Origin: Octopus vulgaris
Lineage: Eukaryota
DNA length: 64,000 nucleotides
Direction: 5' to 3'
NCBI GenBank assembly: GCA_951406725.2
Contig: OX597826.1
Coordinates: 51,894,001-51,958,000 of the forward strand
The notes beneath the pieces were generated by a model. It worked only from the letters and a program-made list of their open reading frames with translations. It was not told the DNA's origin and made no database searches. The translations under genes were made by a program, and so were the position numbers. Of this stretch, positions 22,702 to 23,490 are shown piece by piece (position 1 is the first letter of the stretch; every line of letters starts with the position of its first letter).

Positions 22702-23490
22702 ATCTAATTACTCCTTTTAAATTCTAGAAACTCCGAGAAGAAAGTAAAATTCTTCTCTTTTCTCTCTCTCTCTCTCTCTCGCTCTCCCATTGCTTATATA
22801 TATATATATATATATATATATATATATATATATATATATATATATATATATATATATATATATATATATATATATATATATATATATATATATATATATA
22901 ACAATGATAAATCTCAGAGCGAGTTATAAACAGTAGCGGTAACACACGTGACGCATATTTGCCATTTGAATATGGCAAATATGCGTCACGATGTGTTACC
23001 GCTACTGTTTATAACTCGCTCTGAGATTTATCATTGTTTGATTTCACTTTTTCAATATCAGTGTCAATCGGCACTGGAAAAAGTATATGTATTTGTGAGG
23101 GAAACTGAATTCTCATCGACAACTATGATTGTCACACGCTGATGATAGGTAAACACCTTGAAACTCGAGTCCGTGTGTATCATAAGTTGAAGACGGGAAG
23201 GATGACTTCCCTTCACAAATACTGATAGGGTACAGATAGTGTGTCTATAGCCAGCTGGAGGAGATATCTTCCTGGGGCTACAAACTACAGTAGCATCCAC
23301 CCTTAGGCGTTAGCCATATTCAAATGGCAAATATGCGTCACTATATATATATATATATATGTATATAAGCAATGGGAGAGAGAGAGAGAGAGAGAGAGAG
23401 AGAGAGAGAGAGAGAGAGAGAGAGAGAGAGAAAAGAGAAGAATTTTACTTTCTTCTCGGTGTTTCTAGAATTTAAAAGGAGTAATTAGAT
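22702..23490. repeat. Nested inverted repeats: outer arms 22702-22795 / 23367-23490, inner palindrome 22901-23037
   Basis: Outer arms are reverse complements facing (TA)n, differing by one substitution plus (CT)n tract changes. The inner 65/66-bp arms differ by one indel around the loop ttgaat. Confidence 0.95.
23133..23177 (+). ncRNA. Minimal type I hammerhead ribozyme
   Basis: cacacg-CTGATGA-t aggt aaac acct t-GAAA-ctcgag-TC-cgtgtg. 6-bp stem I, 4-bp stem II with a U.U first pair, palindromic stem III ACTCGAGT, GUC cleavage triplet. Confidence 0.85.

Follow-up and report, generated by a model that had tools for sequence, protein, structure and literature searches.

The insert at positions 22901-23341 of the Octopus vulgaris window examined here (the whole 64-kb stretch of DNA analysed, taken from contig OX597826.1) raises the question of how a long palindrome, a hammerhead ribozyme motif and a repeated hairpin came to stand together inside a (TA)n microsatellite. 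The element is a non-coding 352-nt hammerhead repeat that lies in an AT-repeat together with a short inverted copy of its own end, and the pattern is largely a known one: the locus is, by its pattern, probably a retrozyme mobilised by a Penelope-like element (PLE), and every feature flagged in an earlier sequence-only reading of this DNA has already been described for PLEs or retrozymes. New are the conservation of the hairpin across subfamilies, the equal arms of a related element at 33094-33394 combined with joint offsets near the tail length, and an inverted repeat in the flanks. The features on which the argument draws are collected in Table 1.

Table 1. Features of the insert, its flanks and its relatives in the window (strand +, - or, where neither applies, a point).
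Feature	Positions	Strand	Basis or remark
Left arm of outer inverted repeat: 59-nt unique core, (CT)n, short linker	22702..22794	-	58/59 to 23432-23490
(TA)53, left target microsatellite	22795..22900	.	repeat listing
Inverted 5'-truncated copy, 76 nt (hairpin + 13 nt + 47-nt tail)	22901..22976	-	ends at the family's recurrent distal 3' end
Palindrome centre, GCCAT-N6-ATGGC hairpin; 5-bp stem is microhomology between both pieces	22961..22976	.	
Full 352-nt monomer, 41% GC, self-paired	22972..23323	+	head-to-tail joints 23323->22972
48-nt tail region, inverted at left end of insert, missing at right end	22990..23037	+	by analogy to PMC8557442 (legend of Fig. 2) and PMC11167929, as far as their available text goes
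Canonical type I hammerhead, predicted cleavage after 23171	23133..23177	+	pattern and structure-aware scans
Sense copy of conserved hairpin, 13 nt ahead of short (proximal) end	23313..23328	+	
18-nt terminal redundancy, start of next monomer, proximal 3' end	23324..23341	+	direct repeat
Right (TA)n target microsatellite	23342..23367	.	
Right arm of outer inverted repeat, continuing into unique DNA	23368..23490	+	
Diverged partial copy, hairpin at homologous position, in a 400-bp stretch between microsatellites	8472..8586	-	77%, E 7e-9
Related element in (TA)n: tail-less inverted arm of 151 nt (33094-33244) meeting, head-to-head, a tail-bearing arm of about 150 nt (33245-about 33394)	33094..33394	.	

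The anatomy of the insert can be read off directly. The 137-bp palindrome reported earlier at 22901-23037 is borne out, with arms of 65 and 66 nt around a loop at 22966-22971 and a single 1-nt indel, and so is insertion into (TA)n, with (TA)53 at 22795-22900 on one side and (TA)9-TG-(TA)3 at 23342-23367 on the other. The inverted copy of the hairpin segment that had been claimed for the opposite end exists in the sense that 23310-23341 is identical at 31 of 32 positions to the reverse complement of 22948-22979; this 3' end is, however, more aptly taken for a direct repeat, the terminal redundancy of a 352-nt monomer, in that 22972-22989 recurs at 23324-23341 with a spacing of 352 nt. The whole insert is then a 352-nt monomer with an 18-nt terminal redundancy, joined head-to-head with a 76-nt inverted copy; the inverted piece (22901-22976) and the 370-nt sense piece (22972-23341) have in common only the 5-bp hairpin stem. 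The sense piece stops 13 nt past the hairpin and the inverted piece extends 47 nt more, and this tail of 47-48 nt is found at the left, inverted end alone, the right end being without it. The tail end recurs at (TA)n: other copies of the family also terminate at 23035-23038 and continue into AT-rich repeats (eight contigs of run X3, one contig of run X10), and the left terminus of the insert coincides with this recurrent end.

The family was surveyed by alignment of contigs from four public runs to 22930-23341 at 85% likeness, summed depth not being taken as copy number; run X10, which is RNA by guess only, was excluded as evidence of expression. The numbers of matching contigs were 4,594, 4,062, 3,929 and 438, or about 4,000 per DNA run, and part of the stretch is present in 20 of the 24 runs listed, under five organism codes, none of these runs being listed as RNA. 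Because the 3' part of the monomer directly precedes 22972 in 23, 32, 22 and 2 contigs of the four runs (79 in total), and because three contigs (runs X1 and X10) lead from 23323-23330 back into 22972-22978, a step of 352-353 nt, the family unit is a 352-nt monomer arranged head-to-tail in copies other than that of the locus. Tandem dimers with two complete hammerheads were not seen among the family contigs, which are shorter than two full units. The monomer has a GC content of 41.2%, and the longest stop-free frame in the element spans 81 codons. Its circular fold reaches -102.6 kcal/mol (z -3.2; none of 60 shuffles was as stable), and the z-score of its linear fold is -3.9.

A sense-strand hammerhead with a GUC site and a self-complementary helix III, as proposed at 23133-23177, is confirmed: the pattern of core plus helix III has one match in the window and none in 100 shuffles, and a structure-aware scan gives three matches in the window vs 0.025 per shuffle. 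The motif consists of a helix I of 6 bp, a CUGAUGA core, a helix II of 4 bp above a U.U at 10.1/11.1, GAAA, and a helix III formed by a self-complementary 8-mer as 2 bp plus a tetraloop, with the GUC site ending at 23171. With helix III present, it is a canonical type I hammerhead, and the epithet "minimal" given to it earlier does not apply in the sense of PMC4209133. According to the available text of that paper, the minimal hammerheads of PLEs resemble the locus motif in their type I topology, their self-complementary helix III region and their expected dimer fold, whereas helix III is missing from them and their helix II is longer, a base being bulged out after A9, as against helices of 6 bp (I), 4-5 bp (II) and 2 bp plus tetraloop (III) here. 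Rfam returned no hammerhead match to the element, either at the gathering threshold or at E<=5; at the latter it gave only generic hairpin models below their own thresholds, and a miRNA reading was rejected.

In family reads position 23146 (10.1) is G or A and position 23159 (11.1) is often C, variation that, with each position taken singly, is as expected for G-C and A-U pairs; the locus copy has U.U, and core position U4 is C in 9-31% of the family's summed depth. Because of the U.U at the base of helix II and the change at U4, many family copies, perhaps including the locus copy, may be inactive or weak. In energy calculations helix III is unfavourable as a hairpin (+2.9 kcal/mol) and favourable as a duplex (-10.7 kcal/mol), so that cleavage as a dimer is plausible. 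Motifs of such type are expected in print to cleave as dimers (PMC6765202, available text), a matter with which Lünse et al. 2017 reportedly also deal. Dependence on the dimer is nevertheless not assured, because a stable helix III is open to most type I motifs of invertebrates, as the review PMC7761336 states in the part available. Among Xenopus retrozyme dimers, eight of nine were without cleavage in vitro, according to the accessible part of a preprint (bioRxiv 10.64898/2026.07.22.740005).

On its sequence features the element would be placed with the retrozymes and not with autonomous PLEs: it contains no RT/GIY-YIG ORF of an autonomous EN+ PLE, nor was a PLE ORF (RT plus GIY-YIG) seen in the window or linked to the family. 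Like the non-LTR retrozymes in the available text of PMC7229834 and of the preprint just cited, the element has a non-coding unit within 170-400 nt, a GC content under 45% and a type I hammerhead with a short helix III, and its family shares with them a self-paired fold and, to judge by its junctions, the occurrence of head-to-tail repeats beside dispersed monomers, mussel units being 350-390 nt long. It differs in its inverted, tail-bearing insertion in (TA)n, which those two sources, to the extent available, do not describe (the word "inverted" occurs 0 times in the available text of PMC7229834). A conserved hairpin near the 3' ends sets it further apart, since retrozymes are without a conserved motif pointing to the mobilising partner according to the available part of the review (PMC7761336). 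The preprint, in its accessible part, derives non-LTR retrozymes from the pseudo-LTRs (pLTRs) of PLEs.

The likeness to the inverted pLTRs of PLEs that the sequence-only reading had suggested is supported by the head-to-head inverted copy, the one-ended tail and the (TA)n target. As far as the available portions of PMC8557442 and PMC3846280 go, insertions of EN+ PLEs (Penelope/Poseidon, Neptune, Naiad) likewise have a head-to-head inverted 5'-truncated copy, a tail confined to one end, a short overlap or a palindrome where the two copies meet, insertion into (TA)n and no discernible TSD; the element is unlike them in having no ORF, only 95 nt from the tail to the next hammerhead, a tail of 47-60 nt as against 30-40, and a canonical hammerhead. 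Palindromes at the inverted junction of PLEs, with self-priming as their explanation, are already found in the available text of PMC3846280, as is a 15-bp overlap between the inverted and direct pLTR of Pen2a_Av, which compares with a 16-nt hairpin here. With purified PLE enzyme both strands are cut and extended, and synthesis begins at two neighbouring internal sites of a stem-loop, which bracket the tail (PMC11167929, available part). In that in vitro system, PAc Poseidon of Anolis, two starts downstream of the hammerhead define the tail, both strands are primed, the target is AT-rich and a stem-loop is involved, features that the element would share; PAc starts inside an AC-rich stem-loop within the ORF, however, whereas the proximal end of the element lies 7-13 nt past a 5-bp hairpin in non-coding DNA. 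Neither an arm-length rule nor the 352-nt family is described in the open-access literature searched, as far as its text was available, and among open-access papers on octopus Penelope/hammerhead or Neptune no title deals with such a family.

The locus holds a monomer of a high-copy non-coding hammerhead repeat with a head-to-head inverted end copy, probably inserted by the reverse transcriptase/endonuclease of a PLE acting in trans. Tandem copies would be transcribed and the transcripts cut by the hammerhead to monomers, possibly circularised; the PLE enzyme would nick both strands of (TA)n and prime two cDNAs, the proximal one starting 13 nt beyond the hairpin and the distal one about 48 nt further, which would give the tail; and the 3' ends of both cDNAs would be joined head-to-head. 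In the locus copy, the distal cDNA would have halted after 76 nt, at the hairpin, and the proximal cDNA would have grown to 370 nt (352+18) and reached the same hairpin; since it exceeds one unit, its template would have been circular or multimeric. Their joining would have relied on the 5-bp stem, whose strands either annealed or served for fold-back priming, with synthesis then passing to the long cDNA. A PLE-type insertion is suggested because 5'-truncated inverted copies, one-ended tails and a bias for (TA)n are PLE hallmarks in the available text of PMC8557442. Points against it include the tail, 47-48 nt here and about 60 in 33094-33394, vs the 30-40 bp described in the same text, and an outer inverted repeat in the flanks that insertion by a PLE leaves unaccounted for.

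This outer repeat, which is absent from the sequence-only reading, is formed by inverted copies within 22699-22900 and 23342-23493 (88 nt at 97%); the unique core is identical between the arms at 58 of 59 positions (the right-hand counterpart being 23432-23490), and the microsatellite lengths differ. The left copy starts where an unrelated repeat ends, at 22700, and the core has no further copy within the 64-kb window. It may have been in place beforehand, as a MITE-like or fold-back palindrome centred on (TA)n, or may have come about at insertion, the target being duplicated in inverted form. The adjoining repeat is unclassified, 370-390 nt long, and present in two copies that are 79-83% identical (21573-21938 and 22313-22700), the second of which abuts the outer inverted repeat.

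The flanks bear on the possibility that the structure arose after insertion at the DNA level, by a break near (TA)n or the hairpin followed by fold-back synthesis and template switching, with the right flank duplicated in inverted form in the same event. The left half does consist of hairpin, tail, (TA)n and right flank, all inverted, the two inverted pairs are both about 98% identical, so that they would be of similar age, and (TA)n is palindromic by itself. Repair of this kind is nevertheless unlikely, given that the left half skips 304 nt (23038-23341), the skip beginning exactly at the recurrent family 3' end, and that 33094-33394 has the same two-ended form without any inversion of its flanks.

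Hairpin priming has to be weighed for the family as well as for the locus, since the sequence-only reading took the element to have formed by hairpin-primed or template-switch reverse transcription. Conservation of the hairpin is itself an observation: GCCAY-N6-RTGGC has five matches in the window vs 0.02 expected, all in one superfamily and with differing loops; it is kept across subfamilies, and a C-G version of one stem pair marks one subfamily, in the loose-end consensus behind 23297 (23, 21 and 26 contigs). In the locus copy the junction falls exactly on the 5-bp stem and the central loop is the antisense loop, and the hairpin is stable as DNA (-2.5 to -2.8 kcal/mol); fold-back or annealing of the stem is plausible for this copy, and the same facts would suit a family rule by which most insertions involve a fold-back of cDNA or RNA at GCCAT-N6-ATGGC. 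Such a rule is very unlikely in view of the other copies. In the element at 33094-33394 the inversion lies about 67 nt upstream of the hairpin, at a junction (33244/33245) that is not palindromic; of the six opposite-strand joints among the 15 joints listed, not one has an end within the hairpin, though one comes to 4 nt from it, a count that takes in no hairpin-centred fold-backs, since such copies align without a joint. In run X1 the summed depth left of the palindrome centre is 3,540 vs 162,450 just right of it, or about 2%; the ratios of 34% in X2 and 50% in X3 set no bound, since 95 (X2) and 54 (X3) contigs fit two places vs 7 in X1. In the locus copy itself the arms differ by one base and the right arm goes on past the palindrome: self-priming on one cDNA cannot give the extra 304 nt of the right arm, and a second antisense strand is therefore needed. 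The hairpin is the inversion point of the locus copy, but the expectation that inversion always falls there does not hold. Because the hairpin sits 7-13 nt ahead of the short end, its likely role is that of a cis signal setting where reverse transcription begins, not that of an obligatory inversion site.

An artefact of assembly or of chimeric reads is a highly improbable source of the palindrome. In its favour, inverted repeats nested around microsatellites are difficult to assemble, as stated for PLEs in the available text of PMC8557442, and no contig among those listed in the read-contig alignment bridges the palindrome centre of the locus. Against it, the mirror is discontinuous, ends at the true family terminus and stops after about 200 nt, microsatellite lengths are unequal on the two sides, the flank core carries one substitution, and another element with this architecture is found at a distance of 10 kb. 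A haplotype misjoin was likewise rejected, since the flank mirror ends after ~200 nt.

That second element, at 33094-33394, is a distant relation of the first (alignment score 51 vs a best of 36 in 300 shuffles) with the same two-ended anatomy as the insert at 22901-23341 and a tail of ~60 nt at one end. The offset between its arms, 61 nt, equals the tail (about 60), the right boundary being uncertain by <=15 nt in AT-rich DNA. The offsets at the six opposite-strand read joints are 72, 67, 43, 65, 58 and 93 nt and cluster near the tail length; a range so narrow arose in 0.3-0.9% of simulations with independent uniform truncation (P about 0.003-0.009), a post hoc test that serves as a lead only, in which arm direction is not given and small offsets are possibly hidden by the tool. 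The count left out eight joints with inserted letters, of unstated kind, two of which touch the hairpin edge and could be head-to-tail variants. The insert at 22901-23341 breaks the equal-arm pattern, with arms of 76 vs 370 nt.

As a lead, equal arms would fit two reverse transcriptase protomers that start at two sites and stop together. We tentatively extend this to the possibility, which remains doubtful, that retrozyme insertions record the mechanism of the PLE: the protomers of an RT dimer would start at two sites set by the hairpin, run in step and stop together, leaving equal arms with an offset equal to the tail, and the locus copy would mark the extreme, one of its cDNAs having made a full turn of a circular RNA before it came upon the other at the hairpin. 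So far, support for an enzyme that mobilises animal retrozymes consists of co-occurrence and pLTR phylogeny, as far as the available text of the cited sources goes; such in-step synthesis, if true, would supply physical evidence for the mobilisation of retrozyme circles by PLEs and identify the cis signal. With its many copies, its PLE footprint, its terminal hairpin and its arm-length rule, the family would make both the mobiliser of retrozymes and the formation of tandem and inverted PLE copies testable by counting genomic copies.

Searches elsewhere concerned the element, its hammerhead and its hairpin. Phage blastn gave no match to the element, and the hairpin pattern has no match in viral contigs; three matches to the hammerhead pattern in viral contigs were rejected, one that was inspected looking coding and none passing the helix filter, and the single match in prokaryote genomes, in a bacterial MAG, was taken as chance. 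A metagenome scan with the hammerhead pattern yielded 122 loci, and 17 of the 127 matches from metagenome and viral loci together have a type I hammerhead fold with the same helix III. By blastn none of these 17 is similar to the 352-nt family, and at the 17 loci checked there is no hairpin motif or (TA)n. Metagenome loci L006, L018, L019, L028, L031, L057, L067 and L073 and related ones are unrelated repeats that carry type I hammerheads with the same helix III; L006 is a 662-nt exact tandem, and L028 belongs to a family with a unit length of about 1.1 kb, all from a single sample. Loci L026 and L037 are CRISPR-like arrays of a 37-nt repeat with a period of about 73 nt and are chance matches of the pattern scan.

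The rest of the window has a GC content of 30-43% and is dense in microsatellites. The structure-aware scan gave further type I hammerhead candidates at 39511-39563 (+ strand), where the helix III region is palindromic and a (TA)n follows at a distance of about 125 nt, and at about 41810-41870 (- strand). A 250-nt rod-like hairpin on the - strand at 33590-33840 (-95.7 kcal/mol) has a hammerhead-like core near 33725 at its apex and is perhaps another, decayed ribozyme-bearing repeat. A large exon-like ORF at 35651-36799 (+ strand) matches ionotropic glutamate receptors (Pfam Lig_chan-Glu_bd, Lig_chan), and none of 82 + strand ORFs examined for further receptor exons has a Pfam match. Fragments of broken LINE-type reverse transcriptases (Pfam RVT_1, zf-RVT) lie at 5662-8109 (+), 56004-56390 (-) and 62665-63102 (-); together with the receptor ORF they mark the stretch as animal. 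At 51143-51516, a 185-nt unit that resembles a SINE-type repeat is present in two tandem copies.
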